Source: Curvularia clavata (Eukaryota). From it: a stretch of DNA of 64,000 bases. The DNA is taken from NCBI GenBank assembly GCA_023920165.1, contig CP089281.1:372001-436000 (forward strand). Direction: 5' to 3'. Of this stretch, positions 27,255 to 60,609 are shown piece after piece. Every line of letters starts with the position of its first letter. Position 1 is the stretch's first letter. Under the pieces are notes generated by a model. It worked only from the letters and a program-made list of their open reading frames with translations. It had not been told where the DNA came from and searched no databases. Position numbers and translations under genes: made by a program.

Positions 27255-27375
27255 CGCAACGGCACGAACAAGACTAGTCGAATTGGTTCTGGTGGAAAGT
27301 GTTACTGGAATGTATATAGAAGTGCGTAGATTAATAGAAATATTCTAAATTTAGTAGATACCTATTGGTCTAGTA
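27255..27375 (-). mobile_element. Truncated, mutated fragment of the same LTR
   Basis: gcaacggcacgaacaagactagtcgaattggttctggtgg matches the first ~120 bp of the solo LTR. Confidence 0.85.
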
Positions 27376-32666: not shown

Positions 32667-35600
32667 TGTAACGGCGCGAGCAAGACTAGTCGAATCAGTT
32701 CCGGTGGGAAGTGTCACTTAAATGCATATAGAAGTGCATGGGACAGTAGAAACACCTTAGATTTAGTAGATACTCATAGGCCTAGTACAAAAGAATATCA
32801 AAAATCTACTAAATATCTATAGAAGGTATCTAGTACTTATACTTAGGTGCAGGTCTTTATTAGGTCTAACTTAGCTCTTAATTAGATCTTGATAAGCTAC
32901 TCTAGCTAAAGTATGTTTTGGTCTATATATAGTTATATTACCTCCCCTTCTAGTAGATAGCTAGTCCTATAGCTATCTATTCTAGTTATTATTCTTCTTC
33001 TCTACACTATAGGGTCTCTCGTTCCTAATTTTCTCTAGATTTTCCCTATACTGCGCTACTCTAGGTAATAGAATACTCTAGTTTTAGTATAACTTCTATA
33101 GCTGTGTATATCCTTTACTTAAGCCTCTATACCTAAGTCTTAGTAACTATTCTAGTACTCACGTAGCGCTGCTGCCTTGCTGCCTAGCCGCTAGGCCGTT
33201 TATCTTTATCTGCTAGACAGGCCTAGACGCTTCGATTAGAGCTCCAAGTCGCCGGCGATTCGTTTGTAGTTAGGGTCTAACAGCTATTTAGGTTATATAT
33301 ACTAAGACTATTTACTTCTCTAGTGTATATATTAATAATAATATAGTATTGCCGCCAAGTTTTCTCCTCTACGCTTCTTAATTAAAATAAGTTAGTTATA
33401 ATTTAACGCACTCGTTTTCGCTATATCTCTTTATTATCTGCTTAGTGCGCTGCTAGATACGTATCGCTTTATCTATCTGCGAGCTATCTACGCCTTAGCG
33501 CGCTATTAGTTCGATATTGCTTACGCCTATCTATCTAATTTCTCTAAGAAGTGTCTTTATTACATCTAATAGAAAGAGAAATACGATTCTATAAGTTTAC
33601 TTTTCTTTTTCTTTACTATTTGCAGCTTAGCTAATCTAGATAGATTTCTAAGTATATTTTTAAAAAGTTTTATAATTTAATTAATACTATTAAGTTATAT
33701 GCTATTACTTAGTATAGCCCTATAGTTAATACTAATATAGAGGTATTACTTAATTAAATTGCTACTACTGCTTTAGATATCGCCTATAAAGTCTAAGTTA
33801 TTAGATTCTAGAAGAAAAAGCTTTTAGTTAATTAGCTTTTTATCGTTTAGAACTAGATCCTAAGGGATATCTAAGATAGTATTTTAGAGTTAGTTAATAT
33901 AGTTAATAGTATAGAAAGGCGCCTTTTGCGTCTTAAAGCTAGGTCGGCTTAGGGTGGCGTCTAGGTCGGCCCTTAGATTAAGGAGTTAGAGGAATAGTCT
34001 AGTTTATTCTCCTCCTCTAAGGAGGATAAGAGTGCGGTTAGCTAGGAGATAGCTAATACTAAGTAGGAGCGCTCTAATATTAAACTTTAAGTAAGGTAAT
34101 ATTTTAGAGGTTTGTTAGTAGTTATAAAGTTTAGATCTAAATTTTTTTTATTACTAATACCTAATAAAGTTTCTATTTTTTCTTTTTTTTAAATTTTATT
34201 ATTTTGTAGTAAAGTTATATTCTCTACATCTTATTCCTATACTATAATCTACTTGCTAAAGAAATATAGGGGTTCTAGTTTAGTAGAATATTATTTATAG
34301 AAGAGTTTAAGCTTGTGTAGGGCTTCTATAAAGTTTAAGACTAAGTATTAGATAGAATTTAGATTATATCTAACCTACTATACTTAGTATTTTAGATTTA
34401 AGCAGTATAACTTACTTACTAGAATTTCTTCTATCTTCTATTCTTTTACGCTTTAGATAGGAGTTGCTAAAAGTCTTAGAAATTTTTATTTTAGAAGAGA
34501 GTTTTAAAGATTTTTATATAATAGATCTAGGGCGAAGATATTATAGATCTAGAACTTTTTTAGAAGGTCTAAGTAGTATAAATATTCTATTTTCTTAAGT
34601 ACTCTAAAGGGCTTCTCTTATTTAGAGAATAGCTTCCTACTTAGATAGTCTAATATAAGATTCTAGATATTTAGGAAGACTATATCTCTAATATTCTAAT
34701 TAATAGAATAGTAATAGTAGTTAACTATAGTTTATATCCTATTCTAGACTTTCTCTATTTATTCTTTAACCACCTTCTATATATTATATATATAGGTAGC
34801 TATTTCTAATACATCCTTATAGTTAAGTTTGTTAGTAAGAGTAAGAGAGCTAGTAGAATATTTCTAGTCCTAACTCTGCTGGGGTTTAGAACTATATAGA
34901 ATATAGTATAGAGATATACTAATAGAAGAATATAGTAGGGAAATTTAAGTACAATTAATTAAGAGTAGAAGTCTACTCTAGTTATCTTAGTAGTAGAATA
35001 TAAAGAGGCGCAATCTATGATTAATATATTTATTTATAATCTCTATCTAATTATCTATTTTTTTATAGTAGATAGTTAATAGCTTAACCTTAACATCTAG
35101 AATTTAGCAGAATTCCAACTAAAAGCTTAAAATAAACTGTAGTTCTTAGTCAGAGACTATAGTTTTAGGTATATAGCTAAATCAGTATATCTATTAAATA
35201 AATAGATTAGCTATTCCCCTTACATTAATAGTCTTATAGTAGAAGATAGAGATAGTCTACTTAGATAACTAGTTAATCATAACTATAATTATATTATAAC
35301 TAGATTAGTCTTAAGAAAATTTCTTAAAGTTAATATATAGATGCTATATTAGCTAGTTAGAAATTAGTAAAAGATAAATTATCTCTAGAATTTAGATCTA
35401 TCTAGAATAGGCCTTTCTATAGGCTATACAATTCTGCATATATCTTTTATAGATAGATTCTATACCCTTCTAGTAGTATTTCTAGAATAGTAGTTAGTAG
35501 ATCTTCTTCATATTAGAGTGCGCTAAAAATACCTAGTTATATATTTTCTAAATAAGACGAGTTATAAAAGTAGAGATAGAAGGAATATATAGATAGTTAG

Positions 35601-38600
35601 AATAGAGTAGAAGTCTATTTTTAATCTAGTATCTATCTAGAAGGGACTTTCGCCCTACCCTAAATAAGGCTTAGTTCTCTTATAGAATAGACTTAATTAG
35701 TTCTAGTAAATTAAGAGATATTAGCTCTAATATAGGCTTAACTATAAGTAAAAAGAAAGATTCTACTTAAAGTTAGGCTATATAGATCTTAGTAAGTTTA
35801 GAGTTAATTTAGTTATTAAATTAGTATAGTCTTAGAAGGACCCGCGAATAGTTATTAATTTAGGCTATTTTTAAATTTCTTATATTTTACTTCTATTAGG
35901 AGAGGATATTAGTATAAGTATTATTTTTTCTAGAGATATATTAGATATAGAAATTAAAAAATACTAATTCTTCTATCTATTATATCTAGCAGGTATTTAG
36001 AACTTTAGTAGATATAAAGTATTTAAAGGAATAGTGGTCTAAATACATATTGATATAAAAGTGTATTAATAGTAGTTTAGATTGCCACTTACTAAATACT
36101 ATTATAATAGTAAATAGTTCTTTATTATATATTTTCTAATTTAGCTTAGATCTAGATAGGACCTTACTAAAGAATACTATAGATTACTAATTTCTATTTA
36201 GCTATTTTTAGAAAAGAACGTCTACTATAACGCTATTAGATGCGTTAGTCTCTATTTTAGTATTATACTTTAGATGGTAGTAGTATAAGATAGGAATTGC
36301 TAGTAGTATAGATTTTAATCTTTTAAAGATTTAGTTGTACTTTAAATTCTATATAAATAGTTTTAAAAGGCTTTAGAAGATAAGAAAAGATTTTATAATT
36401 TATAAGTATTTAGAAATAAACTATCTATAAAATCTAGTAAACTTTAGAAATAATTTTATACTAGTAATAGTAGTAGGTTAGATCTAATTTTAAAAGGTTT
36501 CTACTTTATTAGAGTCTATCTCTAGATCTTAGTTAGTTAAAATATACTTTAGGTATTTAGTCTAAGTAATATAGAATTTGCTTTTTTTAATGTTAATTTG
36601 GAGACTGGCTTATCTAAGCCTTTCTAAGATCTATTATATGTGGTGGGGGTGGTCTAGTTCTAATTTGGAATAGATTAAAATATTATCTAGATAGACAGTA
36701 TAGAAGCTGTCTAGATAATTAATTAATATATTATTTATATAGCGTTAATATATTATAGGGCTATTATATAATCTAAAAGGTAATACTTTAGACTTATAGA
36801 TTTTATATCTAATGTAGAATATAGTATACTTCTCTAAGTTAGGGTGTATTTAGATCTTATTAAATGCTGTACGTATATTAAGCTTAGTAAAAACTTTTGT
36901 CTTATAGATACAGGCTAGAAGCTTATTAATACGTAGTATTAGATAGATATTTTTTCTAGTAATTATATTAAGTTGGCGGTAATCTATATAGATATAAATA
37001 TCTCTATTTAACTTCTAAATATAACTAGAGAGATAAAGGGGTAGTAGCTTAGATTAATATATCTTTTTCTAAGATTTTCTATTATAAATATCTTAGTAGT
37101 TTTAAGTTTTTTAGTACTCTATTTATATAGAGGACTAAATTAATTTAAAAGAAGTTTAGTTAGTATAATTTTATAATTGTATAGGCGATATTTAGATAGT
37201 AGCTCTATTACTATTTTATTAAAGATATTGTGGTATAAATAGTAAGTAGATAGAAGTTAGTTCTAAATAAGTTTAGTATTTTTAGAATTATTTAGCTTTA
37301 TATACTTTTCTAAAATATAATTAATTTTATAGATACTTATTATAAAGAACTTATTTTTTTTATATTTTATAAAATAATAGAAAGTATTTACTAAAATAAT
37401 AGTAATATAGAGTAAAGATGTTAGTTAGATAGGGTCTAGAGTAGGGTTAGGAATAAATAGTAGTAGATAAATTTTAGGAAGTTTGAGGTATTCTCTAATT
37501 CTTTATATAAAAGCTTTATAAGGATTATTTTATTTATAGTAGTTATTTTTTTCTTATAGTGCGTCTCGTCTCTATATATTCTATTCTATATTAGTATTAA
37601 TAGAAGGTTGTTTTAATTATATAAGAATAGATAGCGCGGGATTATATATTAGAGGGTACTTAGCTGGCTATATAATCTAGTTCTAGCTTATATTAAGCTT
37701 AAGCTAGAAATATCTTAACTATTTAATTCTAATTATATAGTTCTATATCTCTAAATTTATAATTATAAAGAGATAGTTATAAATCTTTGTTTTATTAATT
37801 TAAATATGTAACTAAATATATTTATCTACTCTAATTTAGATTTAGTTCTAAAATCTTTTAACTATAATTTTAAAAAGAAGTTTTTAGATAGAGATCTAAA
37901 GAGAGCTAGAGAAAGTATAAATAATAGTAGAATTTAAGAATAAAAAGCTTTAGACTCTAGTATTAACTAAAGAGTATAAGCTAATACTAAACTCTTTTAA
38001 ATAAAGAATGGTAGATATTAGAAAGTATTTTTCTCTAAATAAGTAGAATAAATTAATTTTAGCTAGATTATACTTATTTATATTTAGAGTAGAGAGTTTT
38101 TTTAGATCTGGTGGTTTTCTATCTAGTCCTTCTCTAATAAGTATTCGTATACTTTTTTGAATTCTTTCTTCTCTATTTTGATTTCTTAAATCTAAGGAAT
38201 GGGGCACTTATTTATATAATATCTAGATTTTCTATAGTTATAGTAATTACTAATAGTTAGTTTACTATCTAGTGTAGAGGTTTTTAAAAGAAATCTGGAA
38301 ATATTAGAATAAGTGCGAGATTAGGTTAGAGTTAGTTTAGATTAGACTCTATAAGTATTTAGGTAGTAGTTTTAGTATTAACTAATATAGGGCTTTATTA
38401 GTAAAGTATAAGAATTATTAGAAGTGGGTTCTAAACTATATCTAAAAGGAGTGTTTTTTCTTTTAGTATCAAAAATAGTAAAGTATTATATTATTTTATT
38501 AAAGGAGTTATTCTACTAGTATTTAAATTTTAAGTTTAGAATATATAAGGTGGAGGTAATTTTTTTCTATAAGTAGAAAAACTACTCTAATTTTAATATA

Positions 38601-39856
38601 GATTTTTTAATAGTAGTACTTATAAATTTTATTTTAAATTTAGTAAAAGTTTCTTTTTTATTTATAAGTAAGTAGTAGAAAATAGTATGGCTTTCTACTT
38701 ACTTATTGCTAAATATAAAATATAATTTTAGAGTAGTTATTATATTTTTAGCGTTTGAGAACTGGTCCTCTACTAAATTAGCTAGATACTATAGTTCTAG
38801 ATATTTTAGCGATATTTATAGTATATCTCTAGACTAGAGTTATATATACGTATTTACTTTAATAATAGTCTATATTAATTATTAAGTAGTCTTCTATTAA
38901 TATTTGCTATTAGCGGAATATAGATTCTATTCTATTACTAAAATTATTAATAAAAAAGATATATTCTATAAGTTTAATATATAGTAGATTTAGAGTTACT
39001 AACTAATATTTTCTAAATTAAGTTATAGTTAGTTTAGCGATAGTTAGTAGTAATTTAGTAGAAAAGAGAAATTAATTTAGGGCTATAGTATTTTAGCGGG
39101 ATAGCTATATAATTTATTTATTTAGTCTATTAATCTCTATTTAAAGGAGGCTAGTCTTATTCTCTTCTAAATTCTCTTTCTCTTTAATAGCTAGTAGTTT
39201 ACTAGGCATCTTCTCTCTTAACTTTAAATTTTAGAAGTATAGTAACTTTCTAGAAAGCTCTTCTAAGCTAGATAGAGTTAAATTAGCTATTAATAGTTAT
39301 TTTTATAGCTAATAGATTTTTAGTAGTTTCTAAGTCTCTATTCTAGTGTAATCTACGCGACTTTTCTAAAGTTAATTTAACTATAATTAGTATAGAAGGT
39401 CTAAATCTAAAAGCTTTAGTTAGTGGGAGATTAAAAGGATTCTATCTATATATAAACATAGAACGTAATAGTATAAAGTATCTAAAGTAGTTTTAGAGAG
39501 ACTTAGACTTAGATATAGTTTTAATAAATAAGCTATAATATTATTTTAAAGACTATTACTAGCTAGAATAAGATTTTTAATATAATATAATAGTATAAGT
39601 AAGACTAGTTAAATTAGTTTTAGTAGAAAGTATTACTTAAATATATATAGAAGTGCGTAGAATAGTAGAAATATTTAAGATTTAGTAGATACTTATAGAT
39701 CTAGTATAAAATGATATTAAAAATCTACTAAATATTTATAGAAGGTATCTGGTACTTATATCTAGGTGCAGGTCTTTATTAGGTCTGACCCGGCTCTCAA
39801 TTGGATCTTGATAAGCTGCCCTGGCTGGGGTATGTTTTGGTCTATGTATGGTTATA
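32667..39856 (-). mobile_element. Full-length Ty3/gypsy chromovirus, copy A (7190 bp), RIP-inactivated
   Basis: LTRs 32667-32937 and 39586-39856; TSD ATAAA on both sides; PPT complement ttacctcccct at 32938; RT YLD(D)IL relic near 36685; chromodomain relic about 34300-34440. Confidence 0.93.
33423..33997 (+). pseudogene. RIP-mutated antisense accessory ORF of the chromovirus (copy A); Cys-rich N-terminus, coiled-coil C-terminus
   Basis: Indel-free frame over two exons (intron 33591-33643); all internal stops are TAA/TAG, reversible to CAA/CAG. Confidence 0.6.
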
Positions 39857-42011: not shown

Positions 42012-43475
42012 ATAAATATAACCATATATAGACTAAAATTTACCCTAGCTAGAGCAGCTTATTAAAATCTAATAAAGAACCAGATTAGATCTAATAAAGA
42101 CCTATATCTAGATATAAGTACTAGATACTTTTTATAAATGTTTAGTAGATATTTAATATTCTTTTATACTAGATCTATAAATATCTACTAAATTTAAACT
42201 ATTTTTATTATCTTACGTACTTCTATATATATCTAAGTAATACTTTCTACTAAAACTAATTTAACTAGTCGTACTTATACTATTATATTGTATTAAAAAA
42301 TTTATTTTAGCTAGTAATAGTTTTTAAAATGATATTGTAGCTTATTTATCAAGACCATATTTAAGTCTAAGTCTATTTAAAACTACTCTAAATACTTTAT
42401 ACTATTATATTTCAAATTTATATATAAATAGAATTTTTTTAATTTTCTACTAACTAAGATTTTTAGATTTAGATCTTCTATACTAATTATAATTAGATTA
42501 ATTTTAGAAAGGGTATATAGATTACGCTAAAAAAGAGACTTAAAAACTACTAAAAATTCATTAGCTAGAAAGATAACTATTAATAGCTAACCAAACTCTA
42601 TCTAGCTTAAACAAGACTTCTAGAAAATTATTATGCTTTCAAAATTTAAAGTTAAGAAGGAAAATATCTAGTAAACTACTAGCTATTAAAGAAAAAGAAA
42701 ATATAAAAGAGAATAAGACTAGTATTTTTTAAGTAGAATTTAATAAACTAAATATATAAATTATATAGCTATTCTACTAAAATACTATAGCTTTAAATTA
42801 ATCTCTTTTTTCTACCAAATTACTACTAACTATTACTAAACTAAGTAAAACTAAATTTAAAAGATACTAGTTAGTAATTCTAAATCTGCTATATATTTAG
42901 TCTATAGAATATATCTCTTCTATTAATAACTTTAGTAATAGAATAGAATTAATATTCTATTAATAGTAAATATCAATAGAAAACTACTTAATAATTAATA
43001 TAAACTATTATCAGAATAAAAATATATATATAGATTTAGTCTAGATATATACTATAGATATTACTCAAGAATATCTAAAACTATAGTATCTAGCTAATTT
43101 AGTAGAGAACTAGTTCTAAAATACTAAAAATATAATAGCTACTTAAAAATTATACTTTATATCTAGTAATAAGTAAGTTAAAAGCTTTACTACTTTTTAC
43201 TATCTATTTATAAGTAAAAAAGAAACTTTTATTAAATTCAAAAAAAAAATATATAAGTACTACTATTAAAAAATCTATGTCAAAGTTAGAGTAGTTTTTG
43301 TATTTATGAGAAAAGAATTATCTTTATTTTATATATTCTAAATTTAGAATTAAAATATTAGTAGAATAATTCCGTTGATAAAGTAATATAATATCTTACT
43401 ATCTTTAATATCAAATAAAGAAATACTTTTTTTAGATATAATTTATAATCTACTTTTAATAATTCTTATACTCTA

Positions 43476-45584
43476 CAGTGGGGTGACACGAAAAAAGATC
43501 ACAAGGAAAAATAGCATTTTTCACTAGGCTATATCTTAGCTAATAAAATAGCTAAAAATATAACAGCTTAAGATTTGTATAGAGAATTACCAGCTCTTCT
43601 AGTCTATAATCTAAAAAAAAGTTTAGTAAGTAAATAGCTCTTATAAAACAAAGCTAAACTAGTGAGAAAAAAAATCGTCAACTTTACACGTATTTTTCGC
43701 GCTGAGATCTTGCAATTTATATAGCTATCTATATATAGATATATACTATTAGTATATATATATAATATATATTTTTTATAGCTATAGTTATTTATCTAAA
43801 TTAGAAGATATATATATAACTTATATTTTAGTAAATATATAAGATAATAATAGTAAATTACTATCTAATATTTTGTATACCAGCCCTTAGCTTCCACTAC
43901 TCTATTATAGCGTTTGGGCATAGATAAAATACAGCTATCTATGTCTTTTTGTGGTATTTTATGCCACTCTTGGTGAATAGCTGTAAAAAACGTATTTATA
44001 CTAGTCTCACTAGCGCCAGTGCCAAGACTAGAGCTTGGCAGCTTAGTAAGCCGATTTTTAAGTAAGCTCCATACGTTTTCTGTTGGATTTAGATCTGGGC
44101 TATACGCTGGATGGTCGAAAAGTGTAATCTTATCGCGCTTAAACCAGTCTAAAACGTTTCTAGCTTTGTGGATTGTTGCGTTATCTTGTTGGAATTTCCA
44201 GCCTAAATAGATATGGATTAGCTAACTATAACTGTATAGTTAGACTTATATATATATATTTATATATTTAGATATATATATATATATAAGTAAAAATATA
44301 TAGCAGAACTTACCGCGTTTTATATTCGGTTTTATATATGGTATTAGACATTTTCTAATATAGTGGTGATTTCGATGTTTTACTACGCTATTTGGCGTTT
44401 TAATAACCACTAGATCGGATCTGCCACCTATCCAAATAGCTCCCCAAACTTGGATAGTTATATCATGGGCTAAAAATTGGCTTAGTCAGCTAGATATATA
44501 AATTATAATATATATATATAGTTATAAATATATATAACTATATTTTGGCTTATTAGAAATATTTTTAAACGTACTTGTATTTTTAGTAGAGTATATTTTT
44601 GGATTTTGGTGGTATTTTGGCCTATTTCGAGAAAATTCGGCTCGAGAGCCATATCCACGCTGGATTCCAGACTCGTCAGAAAATATAATCTTGTTAAAGT
44701 TAATATTACTAAACTTTTTAAGCGTAGTTTAAGCGTACAATAGCCGTTTTTTAGCTTTTTTAGCGTTTAAAATTAGCTTTTTTTAACTAGTTGTTATAGT
44801 CCAACCCTCAGCTTTTAAAACTCTTTGAAGAGTTCTATTAGATATTTCTAGATTATTTTCGTTTAATAATCTATTTTTTTGCTTTTTTAGACTTCGCGTT
44901 ATATCTCTATTTAACGCTCTTATAGCTCTAGTAGTTGTCTTTGGTATTCTGCCTAAACTAGCTCTTTTTGGCTCACTAATAGTCTTATATTTTCGTTTTA
45001 TTCGAGCTATAGCGTTATATATAGACCGTGGATTTTTTTGAAAGTAATTAATTATATTTTTTATAGGTGTATTAGCGTCTAAAAACGCTTTGATTTGGCG
45101 TTCGAAATTCGACAGTTGTGGCTCCATTGTGTGGGGAATACAGTTTTAAGTTGCTAGAAATGAAAAGCTATAGTTATATACTAGTTGATTACTAATGGCT
45201 GACTAAGCTAGTGCTTATGTAAGCTAGTGCCAAAATTTCAAATCTCATATAGCTATTTAACTAGATAGACAACTATAGCTTAAAGCTATATATATTATAT
45301 ATAAATACTAATAGTATATATCTATATATAGATAGCTATATAAAATAACAAATATCAGCGCGAAAAATACGTGCAAAGTTGACGTTTTTTTTTCTCTCTA
45401 GTTCAGCATTTCTTTCTAAGAGCTATATACTTACTAAGCTTCTTTTTAGATTATAGACTGGAAGAGCTGGTAATTCTCTATACAAATCTTAAGCTTTTAT
45501 GTTTTTAGCTATTTTATTAGCTAAGATATAGCCTAGTGAAAAATGCTATTTTTCCTTGTGATCTTTTTTCGTGTCACCCCACTG
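43476..45584 (-). mobile_element. Tc1-like DD34E DNA transposon, copy 1 (2109 bp), long TIRs
   Basis: CAGTGGGGTGAC...GTCACCCCACTG ends; imperfect TIR about 325 bp; CTCTA on both flanks. Confidence 0.93.
43865..45127 (-). pseudogene. Tc1 transposase, 3 exons, 348 aa when spliced, with premature TAA stops
   Basis: FSDES, VWGAIW, FQQDNA-34aa-SPDLNPTENVW, GWYTKY*; introns 44574-44470 and 44313-44203. Confidence 0.88.
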
Positions 45585-48500
45585 CTCTATTAATAAATCT
45601 TTAAATTAGTTAATATTAAAACTACTATCTAAATACTTGTAGAGTCTAATTTAAACTAGTTTTAATCTAACTTTATATTTATTTTAATATTTCTAGATTT
45701 TTTTTAAAGATCTCTATACTAGATAGTAAATAGACTACTAGTGGTCACTATAACTATAGAAAATTTGAATATTATATACATAAGTACTCTATTCTTGAAA
45801 TTTAAAACATTAAAGTAGAAAAAGAAGAATTTAAAAAAGTATATAAATACTGATTAACAAAAGACTCAATAGAAAATTATTAAATTTAAGAAAACTTTCT
45901 ATTTTAGAAATAAATAAGTATAATTTAGCTAAAATTAATTACTAGTATTTATTTAAAGAATAATACTTTCCCGTCTCTAGTATTCTTTATTTAAATAGAT
46001 CCAATATTAGCTTTTACTTTTTAGTTAATACTAGAGTTTAAGATTTTCAATTTTTAAATTCTATTATTACTTATACTTTTTCTAGCTTTCTTTAGATTTC
46101 TATCTAAAGATTTTTCTTTAAAATTATAGTTAAAAGATTTTAAAACTAAGTTGAAATCAGAGTAGATAAATATATATAGTTATATATTTAAATTAATAGA
46201 AGAAGGATTTATAACTGTTTTTTTATGATTATAAGTCTAAAATGTAAAACTTTATAATTAGAATTGAATAGCTAAAATATTTCTAATTTGAACTTAATAT
46301 AAGCTAGAACTAAATCATATAGCTAGCTAAGTATTTTTTAATATATAATTTTACGCCTTCTATTCTTATATAGTTAAAATAATCTTTTATTAATACTAGT
46401 ATATAATAAAATATATAGAGATAAGATATGCTATAGGGAAAAAATAACTACTAGAAATAATTTATCCTTATAAAGCTCTTAAATAAGAATTTAGAGAATA
46501 CTTTCAACTTTCTAAAGCTTATCTACTACTATCTATTTCTAACTCTACTCTAGACTCTATTTGATTAATAATTCTACTCTACATTACTATTATCTTTGTA
46601 AAAACTTTCTATTATTCTTTAAAATAGAAAAAACATAAGTCTTTTATAATAAATATTTATAAAACTAACAATATTCTAGAAGAGTGTATATAGTTAGATA
46701 ATTTTCAAAATACTAAACTTATTTAGAACTAACTTCTATCTACTTACTATTTATACTATAATATTTTTAGTAAAATAGTAGTAAAGCTACTACTCAAATA
46801 TTACCTCGATAATTATAAAATTATACTAATTAAATTTTATCTAAATCAATTTAACCTTCTATATAAGTAGAGTACTAAAAAACTCAAAGTTACTAAAATA
46901 TTTATAATAAAAAACTTTAGAAAAGAATATATTGATTTGAGTAACTATTTCTTTGCTTTACAATTTTTTTATATTTAGAAACTAAATAGAAATATTTATA
47001 TTTATATAGATTATCGCTAACTTAATATAATTACTAGAAAGATTGCGTATCTAATACTATGTATTAATAATCTTTTAGTCTATACTTATAAAATAAAAAT
47101 CTATACTAAACTTAATATATGTATAGTATTTAATAGAATCTAAATATATTTATATTTAGAGAAGTATACTACGTTTTATACTGGATATAGAATCCATAAG
47201 TTTAAAAAATCTTCTTTCAAATTATATAATAGTTTTATAATATATTAATGCTATATAAATAATATATTAATTAATTATCTGGATAGCTTTTCTATAGTTT
47301 ATTGAGATGATATTTTAATCTATTTTAAATTAAAACAAGACTATCTCTACTATATATAATAGATTCTAGAGAGGCTTATATGAATAGATTTTTAAATTAA
47401 TATTAAGAAGAGCGCATTCTATATTATTTAGACTAAATATCTAAAGTATATTTTAATTAACTAAAATCTAGAAATAGACTCTAATAAAGTAGAAGCTCTT
47501 TAAAATTAGATCTGATGTACTACTATTACTAATATAAAGTTATTTCAGAATTTTTTTAATTTTATAAATAGTTTATTTCTAAATACTTATAAATTATAAA
47601 ATTTCTTTTTACTTTTTAAAGTCTTTTAAAATTATTTATATAGAATTCAGAATACAACTAAGCTTTTAAAAAACTAAAATCTATACTACTAGTAATTTCT
47701 ATTTTATACTACTACTATCTAGAGTATAATACTAAATTAAGATTAATATATCTATTAGTATTATAGTAGATATTTTTTATTAAAGTAGCTAGATAGAACT
47801 TAGTATTTTATAGTATTCTTTAGTAAGATTCTATTTGAATTAGAGCTAAACTAGAAAATATATGATAAAGAACTATTTATCATTATAATAGTATTTAGTA
47901 AATAGTAATCTAAACTACTATTAGTACGTTTTTATATTAATATATACTTAGACTACGGTTTTTGAAATATTTTATAATTACTAAAATTTTAAATATCTAT
48001 TAGATATAATAGATGGAAAATAAGTATTTTTTAATTTCTATATCTAATATGTTTATAGAAAAAATAATATTTATACTGATATTTTTTTCTAATAGAAGTA
48101 AGATATAGGAAATCGAGGGATAGTCAAAATTGATAATTATTTATTAGTCTATCTAGAACTATGATAACTTAATAACTAGATTACTTTTAAATTTACTAAG
48201 ATCTATATAGTCTTACTCTAAATGACATTTTTTTTATCTATATTTAAGTCTATATTAAAACTAATTTTTTTTAATTTATTAGAGCTAATTAAGTCTATTG
48301 TATAAATGAACTAAACTTTATTTAAAGTAGAGTGAAGACTCTTTTTAGATAGATACTAGAATAAAAATTAATTTCTACTCTATCCTAAGTATCTATATAT
48401 TTTTTCTATCTTTATTTTTATATATTGTTTTATTTAGAAAGTATATAACTAAGTTTTTTTAGTATACTTTGGTATAAAGAAGACCTACTAGCTACTATTC

Positions 48501-48933
48501 TAGAAGTACTACTAGAAGAATATAGAATCTATCTATAATAGGTATATATAGAATTATATTATCTATAAAAAGATATATCTTAAATGGATTCAAACTTTAA
48601 AAATAAAATATTTTCTACTAATTTCCTACTAGCTAATATAGTATATATATATTTAGTTTAAGAGTTTTTTCTAAAACTAATTTAGTTATAATATAATTAT
48701 AGTAATAATTAACTAGTTATCTAAGTAGACTATTTCTATTCTCTACTATAAAACTATTAATATAAGAGAAATAGCTAACCTATTTATTTGATATATATAC
48801 TAATTTAGCTATATACTTAAAATTATAGTCTCTAACTAAGAATTATAGTTTATTTTAAGCTTTTAGTTAGAATTCTATCAAATCTTAAATGTTAAAGTTA
48901 AGCTATTAACTATTTACTATAAAAAAATAAATA

Positions 48934-51042
48934 CAGAGGGGTGACAAAAAGAAAGACCAATCAAAAAGGTAGCAGTTTTAGAACGAGTATAACTCGGCCG
49001 ATAGGATAGCTAAAAATATAGAATATACTGTTTTATGTAGGGATTATTCAGCAGTTTAAGTCTAGGATTTTAAATATAGCTTAGTCAGCATAGAAGAAAT
49101 ATAGTAAACTTTTAAAATAGAGTAAAGAAAAAACGCAAAATAAAAGCTACTTTCTCGCGCTTAAATATTTGAGTATTCATTGTTTTTAGTAAATATATAT
49201 AATATAACCATATATATATATAATATATATTTTTTACACCAATAGCTATCTATCTAAATTGTTAGATATATATATAAGTTATATTTTAGTATTTATATTA
49301 GATAATAACTATAAAGTACTATCTAATATTTAGTATACCAGCCCTGAGCTTCGACTACCCTATTATAGCGTCTTGGCATAGATAAAATACAGTTATCTAT
49401 ATCTTTTTGTAGTATTTTATACCACTCTTGGTAAATAGCTGTAATAACCGTATTTATACTAGTCTCACTAGCGCCAGTGCCAAGACTAGAGCTTGGCAGC
49501 TTAGTAAGCCGATTTTTAAGTAAGCTCCATACGTTTTCTGTTGGATTTAGATCTGGGCTATACGCTGGATGGTCGAAAAGTGTAATCTTATCGCGCTTAA
49601 ACCAGTCTAAAACGTTTCTAGCTTTGTGGATTGTTGCGTTATCTTGTTGGAATTTCCAGCCTAAATAGATATGGATTAGCTAACTATAACTGTATAGTTA
49701 GACTTATATATATATATTTATATATTTAGATATATATATATATATAAGTAAAAATATATAGCAGAACTTACCGCGTTTTATATTCGGTTTTATATATGGT
49801 ATTAGACATTTTCTAATATAGTGGTGATTTCGATGTTTTACTACGCTATTTGGCGTTTTAATAACCACTAGATCGGATCTGCCACCTATCCAAATAGCTC
49901 CCCAAACTTGGATAGTTATATCATGGGCTAAAAATTGGCTTAGTCAGCTAGATATATTAAATACAAAATATATATATAGTTATATATATATATAACTATA
50001 ATTTGGCTTATTAGAAATATTTTTAAACGTACTTGTATTCTTTGTAGAGTATATTTTTGGATTTTGGTGATACTTTGGCCTATTTCGAGAAAATTCGGCT
50101 CGAGATCCATATCCACGCTGGATTCCAGACTCGTCTGAAAATATAATCTTTTTAAAATCTATATTAGTAAGCTTTTTAAGCTTATCTTTTGCGTAAAGTA
50201 GCCATTTTTTAGCTTTTTTCTCGTTTAAAATCGGCTTTTTTTGACTTGTTGTTATAGTCTAGCCTTCTGCTTTTAAAACTCTTTGAAGAGTTCTACTAGA
50301 TATTTCTAGATTATTTTCGTTTAATAATCTATTTTTTAGCTTTTTTGGACTTCGTGTTATATCTCTATTTAGAGCTCTTATAGCTCTAGAAGATGTCTTT
50401 GGAATTCTGCCTAGACTAGCTCTTTTTTGCTTACTAATATTAGATTTTTTCTTTTTAATCCGTTTAATAGCGTTATGTATTGACTGTGGCGGTTTTTAAA
50501 AATAGTTAATGATATTTTTTATAGAAGTATTTGCGTCTAGAAATGCGTTAACTTGACGTTCAAAATCTGAATATTTGGGCTCCATAATGTGGGAAATACA
50601 GTTTTAAGTTGCTAGAAATGGAAAGCTCTAGATATATACTAGTTGATTACTAATAGCTGACTAAGCGGCTGCTTATATAAGCTAGTGCTAAAATCTTAAA
50701 TTTTATATCGCTGTTTTATTAGATAGACAACTATAGCTATATAAGATATATATAAAATATATAGATGGATAGTCTCTATCCATGTATAGATAATCATAAA
50801 AACTACAAAACCTAAGCGCGAAAAATACGTGTAAAGTTGACGTTTTTTTTTCTCTCTACTTTAGTCTTTTTTTACGAAGACTTGATGCTGACTAAGCCAG
50901 ATTTTAAATCCTAGTCTCAAACTACTAACTAATCTCTATACAATATACTAGCTACTTAACTTTTAGCTATTTTATTAGCTGAGTTATATAAGTTTCAAAA
51001 TTGCTACTTTTTTGATTGGTCTTTCTTTTTGTCACCCCACTG
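48934..51042 (-). mobile_element. Tc1-like DD34E transposon, copy 2 (2109 bp), divergent TIRs
   Basis: CAGAGGGGTGAC...GTCACCCCACTG ends; same layout as copy 1 at offset +5458. Confidence 0.92.
49323..50585 (-). pseudogene. Tc1 transposase copy 2, 3 exons, with RIP-type stops
   Basis: Same motifs; introns 50032-49928 and 49771-49661; CAA>TAA and TGG>TAG stops at different sites from copy 1. Confidence 0.87.
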
Positions 51043-52900
51043 CAATATCGTTAACATAAGCAATAGAGTTAATAATACTCTGATCTAGTTTGATAAAGCT
51101 AGATATACTATAATTAACAGTTTAAATATCGAAATATAATATATAAAATATATTATAAAATATTCTATGAGAGGCTCAAGCAGATTATTTATTTATAGTT
51201 CTAGATATTAAAGAGTTCTTTTGAATAATATTTTAGCTTAGTTCCTAGTCTAGCTTATATAGAAGGCGTACTCTATTATTTATTTTGATTATATATAATA
51301 TTCTTAATGTTTTTCAAATTTTAATATAATAATTAGCGTATAGTTATAGATTTGGAAGTATTAAAGACTAGTTATACTATTCATAGTAGTTCTATTTAGT
51401 TATCTTATAGCTTAGTTATATACATCTATAGATATTATCTTAAAGTTCAATTTATTCTTTATATTTAGCTGTCTGTTTTTAAATAGCAGCTACTTAAAAG
51501 TTTTTACTAAATACTTAATTTTACTAAAAATATAGTTTAGTATAGAATTATAAATAATTTATCTTTATCTTTACTAGATTTTTTATACTCTATTTTTGGC
51601 TAAAAGTACTTTAGTAACTTTACATACATATTTTTTTACAGTAATAATTTTTTCTATATATATATATTTTATAATGTTAATCAATTAATTAATAATTACT
51701 AGTATACTATTATAAGAACGTATAGATCTAGGTTTTAATAACTTCAGAAGTTTTATTATAAAATCTATTATTATACTACTCTATAGTCTAGTAAGTAGTA
51801 TTAGAAATTATAATAAACTATAGAGTTTGTATCTCTTAGACTTATTCTAGTAATATACTTGATAGTTATTTAGAATATTTTATATCTATACTTTGAAGTA
51901 TAGTATCATAAAAGTTTTAGCTAGTTGTCTAACTATTCTTTTAGTTTCTCTATATCTATATTCAGAAGACTTATATAGTTCTTAAATAAGATTTTTTTAA
52001 TACTTAGTAATATACACATTTATTTATTCTATATTATATTTTGATATTTCTACTTATTATCTAGTAGATTATAAAAGTTATCTTTATTAGAGTTAAACTA
52101 CTAGTTTAGTACTCTCTTTTATTATCATTACTGTAGTATTAAGACTCAATAGACAACTATCTGAATTTTTATCAAATTAGATTAGATATATCTTAGACCT
52201 TTATTAGCGATATAGTTGAAAATTATATTATATTGTTTCTTATATTCTTCTATCTTTAGACAAGAGTATTAGCTTAGATTATTAGCTACTCTATTCAATG
52301 ATTTTATATAATATATTATTTTAAAATTAAACTTAATAACTATTTATTTTGCTAAATTTATTATTAGTAAAGTTTTTTATTTATCATAAAGCTTATTAGA
52401 TTCTAGTAATTGACAAAGATTTTATTTATATCTAGAAGTTCTAATAAGTAGATTTTATATTATCTAAAAGTATCAACTATTCTAAATAGCTTTTTATTCA
52501 AAATATTTTATTTGAGTTCTATTCTAAAGAAATTTATTAAATAGTAGAATATTAGTCTCTATTTCTTTTTTAGATACTACTATAAAAACCTAATTTTTGA
52601 TATACAGTTAAATATATTAATTTTAACTTAAGTTTTTTATTTCAAATCATACATTTTAAATATAGATACTTTAAAGAATATCTACTTTAGTTTTTTTAAA
52701 GCTTTTTAGTAATCTTTAGTCTAGTAAAATGTTATTTCTTTCTTAGTGATTTTAGTAAGTAGTACTATAATTTAGAAAAAGTTTTTTAATGAATTTTTAG
52801 TAGAAACATATAAACTCTAGAAAAACCATGTATCTTTAATTAATTTAGAGATTAACTATTTCTATATAGTTTAGACTTTTGTTAGATTTATTGTAATACT
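51043..52900. mobile_element. Unclassified RIP-mutated sequence; continues at 61944 after removing copy C
   Basis: RIP composition; split by the copy C insertion (TSD ATACT). Confidence 0.5.
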
Positions 52901-53310
52901 CGTAACCATACATAGACTAAAATATACCCCAGCCAGGATAGCTTATTAAGATCCGATTGAGGGCCAGGTCAGATCTAATAAAGACCCGCCTCCAGATATA
53001 AGTACTAGCTACCTTATATAGATATTTAGTAGATTTTTAATATCTTTTTATACTAGGCCTATAAATATCTACTAAATTTGAAATATTTCTATTATCTTAC
53101 GCACTTCTATATATATTTAAATAATACTTCCTACTAGAACTAATTTAACTAGTCTTACTTGCGCTATTATATTATATTGAAAATTTTATTCTAGCTATTA
53201 ATAGCTTTTAAAATAATATTATAGCTTATTTATTAAGACTGCGTTTAAGCCTAAGTCTCTCTAGAACTATTTTAAATACTTTATACTATTACATTCTATA
53301 TTTATATATA

Positions 53311-55157
53311 ACGTGGTTCACAAGCGAGCGGCTCACCCAACCGAGCGGCTCACGCCCCACCAGCGCGCCGACGTCGACACGTTATTACGGTCTTTTATCA
53401 CAGTCAATAAACTATTACGATATACCAATTTAATTATCAGAATCGCCGCTATCACTTACACTATCTATCTCAACTGCACAGGTACGAGCGTTGTGTCCAG
53501 TCTGCTTGCAACGCCCGCACCGCCTCTCTCCTCGCACCCTCTTCGACGCACTCTCACCGTCGCCACGACTGCTACCCGCCTGTTTAGCTAACACTTCTTG
53601 TACTTCGCCTACAGTAAGAGTCTCTTCTGTCCATACGTATCGCCGCTTGCGGCTCTTACGCTTATTTGACTCGTCAAGAGCCGCTTGAAGAGTAGTAATT
53701 TTCTCTATCAGAAGCACCATCTTATGTGCCATTTGCTGAGCCCCTTTACTCAACTGCGCGATCTGCTCGGTAAGTGAATTGGCAGAAGACCCACAGCGAT
53801 TTCTCACGCTCTGTTGAATAAGACCAATTTGAGCCTCAACCTCGCGCGCGTTGCGTGGTGTCTGCGCCTCCCAGGCGGCTGCCCGTCGCGGTGATTAATG
53901 TGGTGTCTGCACCACCACATCAAGCTTTGATAGCACAGCCTGTGGGTCGTGTAGGACTAGACCAGCACCTCTAAAGCCAGCTTGAATATTCTCCTTCGTG
54001 ATAGACTACTCAAAAGCCGCCTTAAAGGCTAGCAGGAAAGTCTCCTTGCTAATATAGTTAGTACGGTTGCGTGCCAAGCCTGAAACAGCGTCGCCATACT
54101 TGCGCTTCAACGGCGAGAAGCAGGCGACGTCAAGAGGCTGCAATAGGTAAGACGAGTGCGCAGACATACAGAGAAGAACAATATTCTTCTCCTTATAAAG
54201 ATCTTAAAATTCGACGGAGCAGTGGCTCTCATAGCTGTCGATAATCAGCAGTCGATACCCACCTACAGTATGCCTCTTTATATAGATATCAAAGTACTCT
54301 AGCTAGACAATACTAAGCTAATTATTCGTCTAGCTATTAGGACTAACTTCAAGAACCTAGTCGGCAGGCAAATTTTCAAACTAGACGTTAATAAGCACCT
54401 TGCCCGCAAAGACAACAAAGAGTGGTATCCAGCAACCCAACACGCCCACGCCTTAGATCGTAGTAACCCACTTACAGTTGCCTAGCTATACCCGCTTCTT
54501 TTTGCCATATTCTTCTAAGCCTATAATAACTAACTATAATAAAATCTTGCCTATTATAAAGCTAGTCTCGTCAAAGTTGTAGATATCGTCGTCTATAATA
54601 CCCTACTTCTGCTTCATCGCCTAGACTAAGTCAAACTAGCGTTAGATAGCTACTAGATCCTCGCAGGCGGCTCGCTAGTAATCATAGGGACGGCTCCAGC
54701 GCGTACAGATTTTAGGAGTTCGCTTAACAAAGTTATCAACCCAGTTCTTGCCAGTAAGATTGCTCTCCCGCTCATACAATAGTTTATCAGCCATTGCTCG
54801 AACGTTAGCCTTTGTAGGCGCAAATCCTCGCGCAGACTCTTCAAGAATACGCTCAACTATAGCCTCCTCTTCTAGCTTATTTAGGCGCTTTAAATTCGGT
54901 TTGCAGTCGCGTCAAGAGCGTCTTCCAGCGCGTTGGTAAGACAAAGTTCTTTAAGGCACATTATAGATAGAGGCAGCACGTCTTTAGCTTTAAACACGTT
55001 ACGATTAGATATTAAAAAGAGCAAATTAAAGATCTAATTCAGGATAAGTTGATTAATTATCGCGTTGCTGAGACATAACGCGTTGTAGTGTCGACGTCGG
55101 CGCGCTGGTGGGGCGTGAGCCGCTCGCTTGGGTGAGCGGCTCGCTTGTGAACCACGT
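53311..55157 (-). mobile_element. pogo/Fot1-type DNA transposon (1847 bp), moderately RIP-mutated
   Basis: About 70-bp TIRs ACGTGGTTCACAAGCGAG...; TA TSD; transposase about 55076-53430 with NFDET, LQPLDV relics and C-terminal CGRCKQTGHNARTC. Confidence 0.93.
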
Positions 55158-58100
55158 TAGATAGAATCCTTTTATTCTCCTACTAATTAAAGCTTTTAGA
55201 TTTAGACCTTCTATACTAATTATAATTAGATTAATTTTAGAGAAGTCGCGTAGATTACGCTAGAGTAGAGACTTAAAAATTACTAAAAATCTATTAGCTA
55301 TAAAAATAACTATTAATAGCTAACTAAACTTAATCTAGTTTAGAAAAGCTTTCTAGAAAGTCGCCGCGCTTCTAAGATTTAAAATTAAAAGAGAAGATGT
55401 CTAGTAAACTACTAGCTATTAAAAAAGAAGAGAATTTAGAAGAGGATAAGACTAGCCTCTTTTAGATAGAAATTAATAGACTAAATTAATAAATTATATA
55501 GCTATTCTGCTAAAATACTATAGTCTTAGATTAATCTCTTCTCTCTACTAAATTACTACTAACTATTATTAAACTAACTAAAACTCAATTTAGAAAGTAT
55601 TAGTTAATAATTTTAGATTTACTATATATTAAAATTATAGAATATATCTTTTCTATTAATAATTTTAGTAATAGAATAGAATCTATATTCTACTAATAGT
55701 AAGTGTTAATAGAGAACTACTTAATAATTAATATAGACTATTATTAGAGTAAATGTGTATATATAGCTTTAGTCTAGAGATATACTATAGATATTGCTAA
55801 AAGATATCTAGAACTATAGTATCTAGCTAATTTAGTAGAGGACTAGTTCTAAAATACTAAAAATATAATAGTTACTTTAAAATTATACTTTATATCTAGT
55901 AATAAGTAAGTAGAAAGCTATTCTACTTTCTACTATTTGCTTATAGATAAAAAGAAAACTTTTACTAAATTTAAGATAAAATTTATAGATGCTACTATTA
56001 AAAGATTTATATTAAAGTTAGAGTAGTTTTTCTATATATAGGAAAAAATTACTTCTATTTTAAATATTCTAAACTTAGAATTTAAATACTAGTAGAATAA
56101 CTTCTTTAATAAGATAATATAATGTTTTACTATTTTTAATACTAAAAGAAAGAATAGTTTTTTTAGATATAGTTTATAACCTATTTTTAATAATTATTAT
56201 ACTTTACTAATAAAGCCCTACGTTAGTTAATACTAGAACTACTATTTAAATACTTATAAAATTTAATCTAAACTAGTTCTAATCTAATTTTATATCTATT
56301 CTAATACCTCTAGGTTTTTTTTAAAGATCTCTATACTAGATAGTGAACTAACTACTAGTAATTACTATAACTATAGAAAATCTAGATATTATATAAATAA
56401 ATGCTCTATTTCTTAGATTTAAGAAATTAAAATAGAGAAGAAAGAATTTAAAAAGGTATACAAATATTTATTAGAAGAGGACTAGATAGAAAACTATTAG
56501 ATTCAGAAAAACTCTCTACTTTAGATATAAATAAGTTTAATCTAGCTAAAATTAATCTATTTTACTTATTTAGAGGAAAATACTTTCTAGTCTCTACTAT
56601 TTTTTATTTAAAAGGCTTCAGCGTTAGCTTATATTTTTTAGTTAATACTAAAGTTTAAGATTTTTTATTTTTAAATTCTACTTTTACTTATACTCTTTTT
56701 AGCTCTCTTTAGATTTCTATCTAAAGACTTTCTTTTAAAATTATAGTTAAAGGATTTAAGAACTAAGTCTAAACTAGAGTAGATAAATATATTTAGTTAT
56801 ATATCTAAATTAATAGAAGAAAAATTTATAACTATTTCTTTATAATTATAGATTTAGGGATATAAGACTATATAATTAGAATTAAGTAGTTAAGACGTTT
56901 CTAACTTAGGGTTAATATAAGCTAGAACTAAGTTATACAGCTAATTAAGTATCTTCTAATATATAATTTTGCGCTCTCTAATCTTATATAGTTAAAACAA
57001 TTTTCTATTAATACTAATATAGAATAGGATATATAGGGATAAGACGTACTATAGGAAAAGGATAACTATAAGAAATAAAATAGTTCTTATAAAACTCTTA
57101 TACGAAGAATTAGAGGATATCTTAAACTTTCTAAAATTTGTCTACTACTGTCTATTTCTAACTTTACTCTAGACTTTATCTAACTAATATTTTCACTCTA
57201 TATTACTATTATTTTAAAAATACTTTCTATTATCCTATAAAGCGTAAGGAAAATAAGTTTTTTATAATAAGTATCTATAAGATTAATTATATTTTAGAAG
57301 AGTATATAAAGCTAGACGATTTTGAAAATGCTAAATTTATTTAGAACTGATTTCTATCTTCTTACTATTTGTACTATAATATTTTTAGTAAGATAGTAGT
57401 AGAGCTACTATCTGAATATTGTCTATATAATTATAAAATTATGCTAACTAAATCTCTTTTAAATTAATTTAGTTCTCTATATAAGTAGAGTACTAAAGAA
57501 CTTAAAGCTATCAAAATATTTGTAATAGAAAATCTAAGGAAAGAATATATTGATCTAAGCTACTATCTCTTTATCTTTTTAGTCTTTTATATTTAGAAGC
57601 TAAATAGAGATATTTATATCTATATAGAATACTACTAATCTAATATAATTACTAGAAAAAATACGTATTTAATACTATATATTAATAAGCTTCTAGTCTA
57701 TATCTATAAAGTAAAATTTTTTACTAAGCTTAATATACGTATAGTATTTAATAAAATCTAAATATACCCTAACTTAGAGGAGTATACTATATTCTATACA
57801 AGATATAGAATCTATAAGTCTAAAGTATTATCTTTTAGATTATATAATAGCTCTATAATATATTAATGCTATATAAATAATATATTAATTATTTATTTAG
57901 ATAGCTTCTATATAGTCTATTTAGATGATATTTTAATCTACTCTAAATTAGAACTAGACTATCTCTACTACGTATAATAGGTTTTAGAAAGACTTAGGTA
58001 ACCTAGTCTCTAAGTTAATATTAAGAAAAGCGAATTCTATATTATTTAGACTAAATACCTAGAGTATATTTTAATTAACTAAGGTTTTGAGATAGACTCT

Positions 58101-60609
58101 GATAAAATAGAAGCTTTTTAAGACTAGATCTAATCTACTATTATGACTAGTATAAAATTATTTCTAAGGTTTACTAGATTCTATAGATAGTTTGTTTCTA
58201 AATACTTGCGAATTGTAAAATCTCTTCTTATCTTCTAGAGTCTTTTAAAACTATTTATATAGAATTTAGAGTATAACTAAATCTTTAAAAGATTAAAATC
58301 TCTACTATTAGTAATTTTTATTTTATACTACTACTATCTAGAGTATAATACTAAGATAGAGACTAATATGTCTAATGGCGTTATAGTAGGCGTTCTTTCT
58401 TAAAAGTAGCTAAATAGAAATTAGTATTCTATAATATTCTTTAGTAAGGTTCTATCTAGGTCTAAGCTAAACTAGAAAATATATAATAAGAAACTATTTA
58501 CTATTATTATAGCGTTTAGTAAATAGTGACTAGAGCTACTATTAATACGCTCTTATATTAATATATACTTAGACTACTATTTTTTTAAATATTTTATAAC
58601 TACTAAAGTTCTAAATATCTACTAAGTATGATAAGTAGAAGAATTAGTATTTTTTAATTTTTATATCTAATATATCTCTAGAAAGAATAATACTTATACT
58701 AATATTCTCTTCTAATAAGAGTAAGATATAGAGAATCTAAAAATAGTCTAAATTAATAACTATTCGCGGGTTTTTTTAGGACTATACTAACTTAATAACT
58801 AAATTAACTCTAAACTTACTAAGATCTATATAGTCTAACTCTAAGTAGAATCTTTCTTTTTACTTATAGTTAAGTCTATATTAGAGCTAATATCTTTTAA
58901 TTTGCTGGAGCTAATTAAGTCTATTCTATAAAAGAACTAAGTCTTATTTAGGGTAGAGTATAAGTCTTTTCTAGATAGATACTGGATTAAAAATAGATTT
59001 CTACTCTATTCTAACTATCTATATATTTCTTCTATTTCTATTTTTATAACTCGCTTTATTTAGGAAGTATATAATTAGATATTTTTAGTGTACTTTAGTA
59101 TAAAGAAGATCTACTAACTACTATTCTAGAGGTACTACTAGAAGGGTATAGAATCTATCTATAAAAGGTATATATAGAATTATATAGCCTATAGGAAGAT
59201 CTATTCTAAATAGATCTAAATTCTAGAGATAATTTATCTTTTACTAATTTCTAACTAGCTAATATAGTATTTATATATTAACTTTAAAGAATTTCTCTAA
59301 GACTAATCTAGTTATAACATAATTATAGTTGTGATTGACTAGTTATCTAAATAGACTATCTCTATCCCCTACTATAAGACTATCAATATAAAAGAAATAG
59401 CTAATCTATTTATATAATAGATATACTCATTTAGCTATATATCTAAAACTATAGTTTTTAACTAAAAACTATAGTTTATTTTAAGCTTCTAGTTAGAATT
59501 CTGCTAAATTCTAGACGTTAAGGTTAAGCTATTGATTGCCTACTATAAAGAAATAGATAGTTAGATAGAGATTATAAATAAGTATATTGATTAGAGATTA
59601 TATCAATTTATATTCTACTACTAAAATAACTAGAGTAGATTTCTATCTTTAATTAATTATACTTAAATTTTTTTACTATATTCTTCTATTAGTATATCTC
59701 TATACTACGTCCTATATAGTTCCAAACTCTAGTAAAGTTAGAACTAGAAATATTCTACTAGTCTTTCTATCTCTACTAATAAACTTAACTATAAGAATAT
59801 ATTAGAAATAGCTATCTATATACATAATATATAGAAAATAGCTAAAACTAAATAGAAAAAGTCTAGAATAGGATATAAACTATAGTTAACCACTATTATT
59901 ATTCTATTAACTAGAATATAGAAGATAAAGTCTTTCTAAGTATCTAAAATCTTATATTAGACTATCTAAATAGAAAGCTATCTTCTAAATAGAAAGGACC
60001 CTTTAAAATACTTAAGAAAATAGAATATTTATACTATTTAAACCTTCTAAAAAGATTTTAGATCTATAATATCTTTACTCTAGATTTATTATATAAAGAT
60101 TTTTAAAACCCCTTTCTAAAATAAGAATCTCTAAAGTCTCTAGCTACTTCTATCTAAGATATAGAAAAATAGAAAGTAGAAGAAATTCTAGTAAGTAAGT
60201 TATACTACTCAAACCTAAAATACTAAGTATAGTAGATTAGATATAATCTAGATTCTATTTAGTATTTAGTCTTAAACTTTATAAAAACTCTATATAAGCT
60301 TAAGCTCTTCTATAAATAATATTCTACTAAACTAGAATTTCTATATTCTATTAGTAAGTAGATTATAATATAAAAATAAAATATAGAGAATATAATTTTA
60401 CTATAAAATAATAAAATTTAAAAAAAAAAAATAGAAACTTTATTGAATATTAGTAATAAAGAAAATTTAGACCTAAACCCTATAACTACTAGTAAATCTC
60501 CTAAATATTATCTTACTTAAAGCTCAATATTAGAGCGCTCTAGCTTAGTATTAGCCATCTTCTAGTCAACTACACTCTTATCCTCCTCTAAAAAGGAGGA
60601 TAAACTAGA

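Follow-up and report, generated by a model that had tools for sequence, protein, structure and literature searches.

A fungal Tc1 (DD34E) transposon lineage that probably duplicates five target bases, TANNN, rather than TA alone

In a 64,000-nucleotide stretch of Curvularia clavata DNA (contig CP089281.1, positions 372,001 to 436,000; hereafter the window), a Tc1-type (DD34E) transposon, which we call copy 1, is flanked on either side by the same five target bases. We consider it probable, at roughly 0.7, that copy 1 belongs to a distinct fungal Tc1 lineage that duplicates five bases of its target, reading TANNN when oriented by the transposase gene, and not TA alone. A 2-bp duplication of TA is regarded as a hallmark of the whole IS630-Tc1-mariner superfamily. 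Passages of PMC5801840 likewise describe exclusive integration into TA as the long-accepted rule for all Tc1/mariner transposons.

Copy 1 sits inside one of three diverged copies of a long terminal repeat (LTR)-type retroelement, the other two of which are empty at the corresponding point. The features that bear on its insertion are the following (TIR, terminal inverted repeat).

43476..45584, minus strand: Tc1-type (DD34E) transposon copy 1, 2109 bp, a pseudogene, with termini CAGTGGGG...CCCCACTG
43471..43475: left target pentamer, CTCTA (TAGAG in the transposase sense)
45585..45589: right target pentamer, CTCTA
43476..43813: TIR at the gene-downstream end, TA abutting
45247..45584: TIR at the gene-upstream end, TA 3 nt outside
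42019-48933: retroelement copy B, which houses copy 1
32667-39854, minus strand: retroelement copy A
52903-61938: retroelement copy C
38402..38406, minus strand: empty target, single CTTTA, in sister copy A
56202..56206, plus strand: empty target, single CTTTA, in sister copy C

The inverted repeats of copy 1 are 338 nt long and 90% complementary, and its terminal 27-mer is confined, at 0 mismatches, to the two ends (0 occurrences expected from 100 shuffles). Within retroelement B, and with a slash marking each element boundary, the locus reads ...TTATA CTCTA/CAGTGGGGTGACAC ... GTGTCACCCCACTG/CTCTA TTAATAAA, an arrangement that bears out, at 43471-75 and 45585-89, the CTCTA-cagtgggg...ccccactg-CTCTA structure described in the initial annotation. 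Inspection by eye of sisters A and C shows that both read TTATA-CTTTA-CTAATAAAGCCC at the insertion point. When the 1000-nt left and right flanks of copy 1 were each aligned to retroelements C and A, the left-flank alignment ended at 56206 in C and 38402 in A and the right-flank alignment began at 56202 in C and 38406 in A, such that the two overlap by exactly 5 nt; the earlier assertion that the empty sisters can be aligned only if five bases were duplicated is thus upheld. Position 3 of the pentamer is C on both sides of copy 1 and T in both sisters. This C, common to the two pentamers and absent from the sisters, indicates that the pentamers are copies of one another. Shifting the boundary by +1 or -1 destroys the flanking repeat, and the length of the repeat is therefore exactly five. 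Exactly five bases were duplicated at the copy 1 insertion.

The same sister-copy method returns a conventional result for an internal control, an unrelated TIR element of 1847 bp nested in retroelement C (53311-55157). This element reads TA/ACGTGGTTCAC...GTGAACCACGT/TA and, compared with sisters A and B, carries a plain 2-bp TA duplication. It has ACGTGGTTCACAAGCGAGCGGCTCACCC... at both termini and a G+C content far above that of its surroundings.

The copy 1 transposase gene runs on the minus strand and is interrupted by two introns, the positions of which recur in four relatives from metagenomes (L001-L004, introduced below).

44575..45127, minus strand: transposase exon A, with the start codon, a weak helix-turn-helix (HTH) and the catalytic D at residue 151; stops at 115 and 133
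44470..44574, minus strand: intron 1, GTACGT...TAG, 105 nt; position common to L001-L004
44314..44469, minus strand: transposase exon B
44203..44313, minus strand: intron 2, GTAAGT...TAG, 111 nt; position common to L001-L004
43865..44202, minus strand: transposase exon C, with D243, E278 and the terminus ...GWYTKY

The spliced gene comprises 348 codons, with premature stops at residues 115 and 133, and D151, D243 and E278 give the spacing D(91)D(34)E. Pfam assigns exon C to DDE_3 (E 1.7e-12, 47.8 bits, cut-off 28.6), and the Pfam search of exons A and B returned no family at E<=0.01. The best solved match of exon C is the Sleeping Beauty catalytic domain SB100X (5cr4; E 3.5e-12), with Mos1 next (E 0.03). 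An N-terminal HTH_Tnp_Tc3_2 domain lies below threshold at the expected place (cut-off 31.5), scoring E 0.0087 and 16.8 bits in L003 and E 0.083 in copy 1. Full-length homologues with PF01498/PF13936 align over their residues 19-359 to copy 1 (tblastn, E 1e-35 to 1e-39), and 65 homologues have PF01498+PF13358 architectures and are Tc1-like wherever named. The closest database proteins, at most 49% identical over exon C, share the ...GWYTKY end and derive from metagenomes or, where a source is named, from Penicillium, Hirsutella and Fusarium.

Three Tc1 family features are therefore at hand: a DDE domain with 34-residue D-E spacing, TIRs with CAGTG-type tips, and grouping with Tc1-like transposases. 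Judged by protein, termini and tree, the element is a Tc1 (DD34E) transposon near the impala-type fungal lineage. The hallmark that finds no match is the 2-bp TA duplication abutting both ends, as TA here forms the first two bases of a pentamer, and for that reason we take the element as a variant and not as a plain member of Tc1. Two features of the impala subfamily, a TA directly after the CCCACTG end and TIRs of ~27 bp, are also without counterpart, as is the Transib/RAG1-core transposase, the encoded protein being DDE_3/Tc1. Inverted repeat/direct repeat (IR/DR)-type Tc1 elements, such as those like Sleeping Beauty, have inverted repeats of ~200-250 bp, each with two transposase-binding repeats, one outer and one inner. 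In copy 1 and also in L002, an 11-nt match to the outer TIR region lies ~190 nt inside, and this short, A-rich inner match may faintly hint at ends of the IR/DR type.

When JGI metagenome contigs were searched with exon C, 266 relatives emerged, and 80 of these loci were retained. The family accounts for four of the 80, namely L001-L003, at 64-68% identity, and L004, at 53%. In a tree of 130 columns, copies 1 and 2 (the latter a second element in the window, treated below) form one clade with L001-L004 at 100/100 support; this clade, the stem of which may be lengthened by AT-biased composition, is nested among Tc1-like homologues as sister to P0001-P0004 and P0013. The phylogenetic check proposed for the transposase accordingly places it among Tc1-like transposases. 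Element ends are missing from L001 and L003, L004 retains the gene-downstream end alone, and L002 is the sole complete relative among the 80 of 266 (element 175-2277, ~69% nucleotide and 68% protein identity). It too is flanked by five identical bases, TAGTA/CAGAGGGG...CCCCTCTG/TAGTA, or, with its context, ...CTAA-TAGTA/CAGAGGGGTGACAT...ATGTCACCCCTCTG/TAGTA-GTAATAAC. The 18 nt outside each L002 end (157-174 and 2278-2295) are ~67% mutually complementary, and the inverted repeat extends through them; around its pentamer, the L002 target may be partly palindromic.

In the orientation of the transposase gene, seven ends can be compared, among them those of two complete insertions.

Copy 1: upstream TAGAG/, downstream /TAGAG
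Copy 2: upstream TATTG/, downstream /TATTT
L002: upstream TAGTA/, downstream /TAGTA
L004: upstream end not on contig, downstream /TATAA

A five-base duplication that begins with TA is present at both complete insertions, which are independent of one another, and TA occupies a consistent position at all seven ends. At the gene-downstream end TA abuts the element in 4/4 cases (copy 1, copy 2, L002 and L004). At the gene-upstream end TA lies at -5/-4 in 3/3 cases (TAGAG, TATTG and TAGTA) and abuts in 1/3; the frequency of the TA dinucleotide in the AT-rich DNA is 0.186. The trinucleotide that adjoins the upstream end varies (GAG, TTG, GTA) and matches the target, indicating that it is not element sequence.

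More distant relatives behave differently from the family. TA abuts both ends in 4/4 of L005, L006, L008 and L015, and the two with comparable outer flanks, L005 and L015, have no 5-bp identity. L005 and L006 fall outside the family clade, and L008 and L015 were left out of the tree on account of an alignable stretch (high-scoring segment pair) of <80 residues. L015 was at one point a candidate for the closest relative, with 83% identity in its best segment, and was rejected as a remote Tc1 element whose two ends both adjoin TA. In the distant and probably bacterial IS630-like element L012:1034-2371 (32% identity), TCCGGA and not TA stands outside both 20-nt perfect inverted repeats, possibly as a 6-bp duplication. 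A degenerate 26-letter pattern of the TIR tip had 0 matches in the genome-contig and viral-contig collections; scanning with the transposase protein gave just distant bacterial IS630-like matches in genome contigs (best 36-65%, short segments) and none in viral contigs.

Copy 2 lies 5.4 kb from copy 1 and offers a further, more limited, view of the ends.

48934..51042, minus strand: copy 2 of the transposon family, of a different TIR subfamily, flanked AAATA/.../CAATA, a pseudogene

The two copies are 84.7% identical overall (transitions account for 147/342 differences), and exon A of copy 2 has stops at residues 30 and 109. The identity is mosaic: 43976-44475 is 98-100% identical to 49434-49933, and the TIR regions are only 60-68% identical, a pattern that identifies the copies as members of different subfamilies with a converted or recombined core. 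The near-identical cores of ~500 bp point to gene conversion or recombination between subfamilies, or else to assembly collapse. The flanks of copy 2 read aaaTA/CAG...CTG/caaTA. On the left, they correspond to retroelement B, which terminates precisely at copy 2's left tip (48933/48934), up to ...AAATA/, where the sisters read ...AGATA/ followed by 2.4 kb absent from B. On the right (CTG/CAATATCG...), we found no homology to the continuation of the retroelement (scores of 29-30 against shuffle means of 26-30); DNA at 51052-51226 is instead related to a repeat at ~27330-27507 (minus strand; score 108 against 46 +/- 6 shuffled), which resides in the GC-richer half of the window. Copy 2 thus looks like a junction between two insertion sites, formed by recombination between two copies or by a transposon-adjacent deletion. 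Since its flanks come from two different repeats, copy 2 was ruled out as a test of duplication, and its ends can be scored only singly for the position of TA. The initial annotation had seen in copy 2 the same asymmetry as in copy 1; its letters are correct and each end fits NNNTA, and the chimeric flanks remove it as evidence for a duplication.

How firmly a five-base duplication can be ascribed to the lineage depends on how well an ordinary TA-duplicating Tc1 would account for the same data, an explanation we regard as unlikely though the best of the competitors. Copy 1 would then record a rare event in which one end joined off register, and at L002 the 5/5 match would be a coincidence of landing in a TAG repeat. 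Several observations favor this account and weigh correspondingly against ours. In the experiments excerpted from PMC5801840, ~1.4% of Sleeping Beauty insertions were at non-TA sites, and two of the four checked by polymerase chain reaction were aberrant, lacking a duplication and having TA on one side only. TA is the target given for all other fungal Tc1/mariner elements in the relevant portions of PMC2836289, PMC4188875, PMC4112212 and PMC3599309. Copy 1 was singled out in the initial annotation for its oddness and is therefore a biased sample, both flanks derive from one locus in two insertions only, and a single A>G change could account for the upstream end of copy 2 not being adjoined by TA. 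The L002 contig, a metagenome sequence of 2.3 kb, has no empty site for comparison, and its flanks fit equally well a plain TA insertion into TAGTAGTAGTA, a (TAG)3 run.

Because L002 can be explained in this manner, we measured how often plain TA insertion would yield 5/5 flank identity by chance: across the AT-rich half of the window the property held for 57/5935 TA sites (0.96%), and across L001-L004 for 23/1744 (1.3%). The coincidence needed at L002 consequently has an empirical chance of ~1%, in a test that is free of the bias attached to copy 1. In addition, and independently, no TA adjoins copy 2 at its upstream end, where one is nevertheless present at -5/-4. An ordinary TA-duplicating element would thus require two rare events in the sole two complete elements, which represent two diverged sublineages.

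Origins that do not involve the transposase, namely end-joining capture at a staggered break, or else rearrangement after insertion, gene conversion or an artefact of assembly, appear improbable. The region is clearly rearranged, as the chimeric flanks of copy 2 and the contrast between the 98-100% identical central 500 bp of the two copies and their 60-68% identical ends attest. Both ends of the element are, however, complete to the last base (CAG...CTG). From the chemistry of Tc1 and Sleeping Beauty excision, end-joining of 3'-overhang excision products is not expected to preserve complete ends. TA moreover stands at the same place in every end, and the same geometry recurs on an unrelated metagenome contig. 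We give very little credence to the further proposal that the three bases at the gene-upstream end belong to the element (NNNCAG...CTG) and that the duplication is just TA, which would place TA on both sides of all copies (TA/GAGCAG...CTG/TA), given that these bases vary from copy to copy (GAG, TTG, GTA), that in copy 1 and L002 the same three follow the downstream TA in the target, that those of copy 1 belong to the retroelement according to its sister copies, and that homology among copy 1, copy 2 and L002 begins exactly at CAG.

If the lineage does duplicate TANNN, its integration can be pictured as a departure from the usual Tc1 pathway. The transposase would excise the element at CAG...CTG, like other Tc1 elements, and then capture a TA-containing target. 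The 3'-OH of the gene-downstream end would join 5' of the T of TA, the canonical position, while the 3'-OH of the gene-upstream end would join the opposite strand 5 nt away and not 2 nt, which puts the join 3 nt beyond the usual point. Filling in the two 5-nt gaps would then generate the TANNN direct repeat. The initial annotation had suggested that the family may integrate with a 5-nt stagger. A five-base, TA-containing duplication at copy 1 and TAGTA on both sides of L002 support this proposal, from which we infer the stagger itself and its generality for the lineage.

The related claim, that orientation is fixed with respect to TA, fares less well. Agreement among the four informative ends (copy 1, both ends of copy 2, and L004) suggests a fixed orientation of TA relative to the gene. 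The agreement falls short of statistical significance. Over their outer 27 nt the copy 1 termini are identical and provide no visible basis for an orientation-specific complex, a further point against our interpretation; any asymmetry would accordingly have to come from subterminal sequence. A precedent is the left-only half-repeat proposed for Sleeping Beauty in part of PMC5801840. More tentatively, a Tc1 lineage may have reset the spacing of its strand transfers from 2 to 5 bp, with TA read by one active site, always that of the gene-downstream end.

Among known systems, impala and mimp of Fusarium oxysporum share with copy 1 the terminal heptamer CAGTGGG, the mimp end being ...CCCACTG (in the excerpt of PMC3599309 that describes it), such that the resemblance to impala termini pointed out earlier holds. 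The mimp 3' end is given there as TT[TA]TTGCNNCCCACTG, with TA directly following the end in 150/158 cases and termed the required target, and the TIRs are ~27 bp, as against 338 nt in copy 1. Copy 1 differs further in that TA abuts the gene-downstream end only, five bases are duplicated, and the gene has two introns. An F. oxysporum protein named 'Transposable element Tc1 transposase', which may be impala itself, is 37% identical to exon C and ends in ...GWYTKY. Sleeping Beauty and salmonid-type Tc1 elements resemble copy 1 in DD34E spacing and long inverted ends, and include its best solved relative (5cr4). In Sleeping Beauty, as covered by the sections of PMC5801840 at hand, TA is duplicated and non-TA integration is a side reaction of ~1.4%, whereas in the copy 1 family the off-register geometry is found at every upstream end examined.

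Departures from a 2-bp duplication have precedents in or near the IS630-Tc1-mariner superfamily, where ciliate TBE1 makes a 3-bp ANT duplication and Tc4/Tc5 of C. elegans duplicate TNA. These show that duplication length can change, but they are 3-bp, centrally symmetric and very distant, and none is a 5-bp TANNN duplication in a DD34E Tc1. A 5-bp stagger is familiar from other DDE elements, among them Transib/RAG, phage Mu and several retroviral integrases. The five-base duplication of copy 1 implies the same spacing of two joining events as in these systems (for Transib, a 5-bp target-site duplication is given in a portion of PMC1131882); copy 1 differs from them in encoding a DDE_3/Tc1 protein of an unrelated transposase family and in having Tc1-like termini. 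In full-text literature searches no 5-bp duplication in a Tc1/mariner element came up, with supplements (including the Trem insertion list of PMC2836289) and Repbase lying outside that scope.

The window falls into two contrasting halves. G+C is ~50% with long open frames in bases 1-32000 and switches sharply to 18-35% in bases 32000-64000. Translations in the GC-rich half were named by eye as pescadillo-like, folylpolyglutamate synthase-like and P-type Ca-ATPase-like frames. In the AT-rich half TpA/ApT is 1.45 and (CpA+TpG)/(ApC+GpT) is 0.44, compared with 0.74 and 1.28 in the GC-rich half. Dinucleotide values of this kind are commonly attributed to repeat-induced point mutation (RIP) in fungi, and the AT-rich half is repeat DNA with RIP-like indices. 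The three copies of the LTR-type retroelement, which are 81-86% identical to one another, make up most of it, and a terminal segment of ~408 bp is repeated at 39447-39854, 42019-42427 and 52903-53310.

The element represented by copy 1 is multi-copy in the source organism. Among the contigs of public runs compared with the window (X1, 1181; X2, 219; X17, 50; X18, 373), the 1181 from X1 align at 80-100% identity, and coverage of the element is ~10x that of its flanks, a ratio that should not be read as a copy number. Among the matches listed, retroelement copies lacking the insert (joint 43476 to 45606) are represented by one contig in X1 and two in X2. Run X17, labelled as a different organism (I), contains a contig with 2 differences in 367 nt from the mutated left TIR (43474-43840), and runs of 11 coded organisms have words in common with the copy 1 element. 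This sharing denotes either very close relatives or a widely distributed element.

Fungal surveys, as far as the pertinent parts of PMC4188875 and PMC4112212 describe their procedures, call elements complete by their TA flanks, and for the TremH family the target could not be defined, according to a passage of PMC2836289. If the lineage exists as we propose, TANNN-duplicating elements would be missed or mis-bounded by annotation that demands TA on both sides. The practical weight of the finding is modest until many insertions have been tabulated; an intact member would offer a Tc1-type tool whose target footprint differs. If TA is indeed read by one active site, the synaptic complex would be functionally asymmetric despite near-identical termini, and what governs the length of the stagger in the Tc1/mariner fold would become testable against impala and Sleeping Beauty. 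A lineage that duplicates TANNN would also constitute a natural experiment on how the stagger is set, through target bending, dimer geometry and the recognition of TA by one or both protomers.

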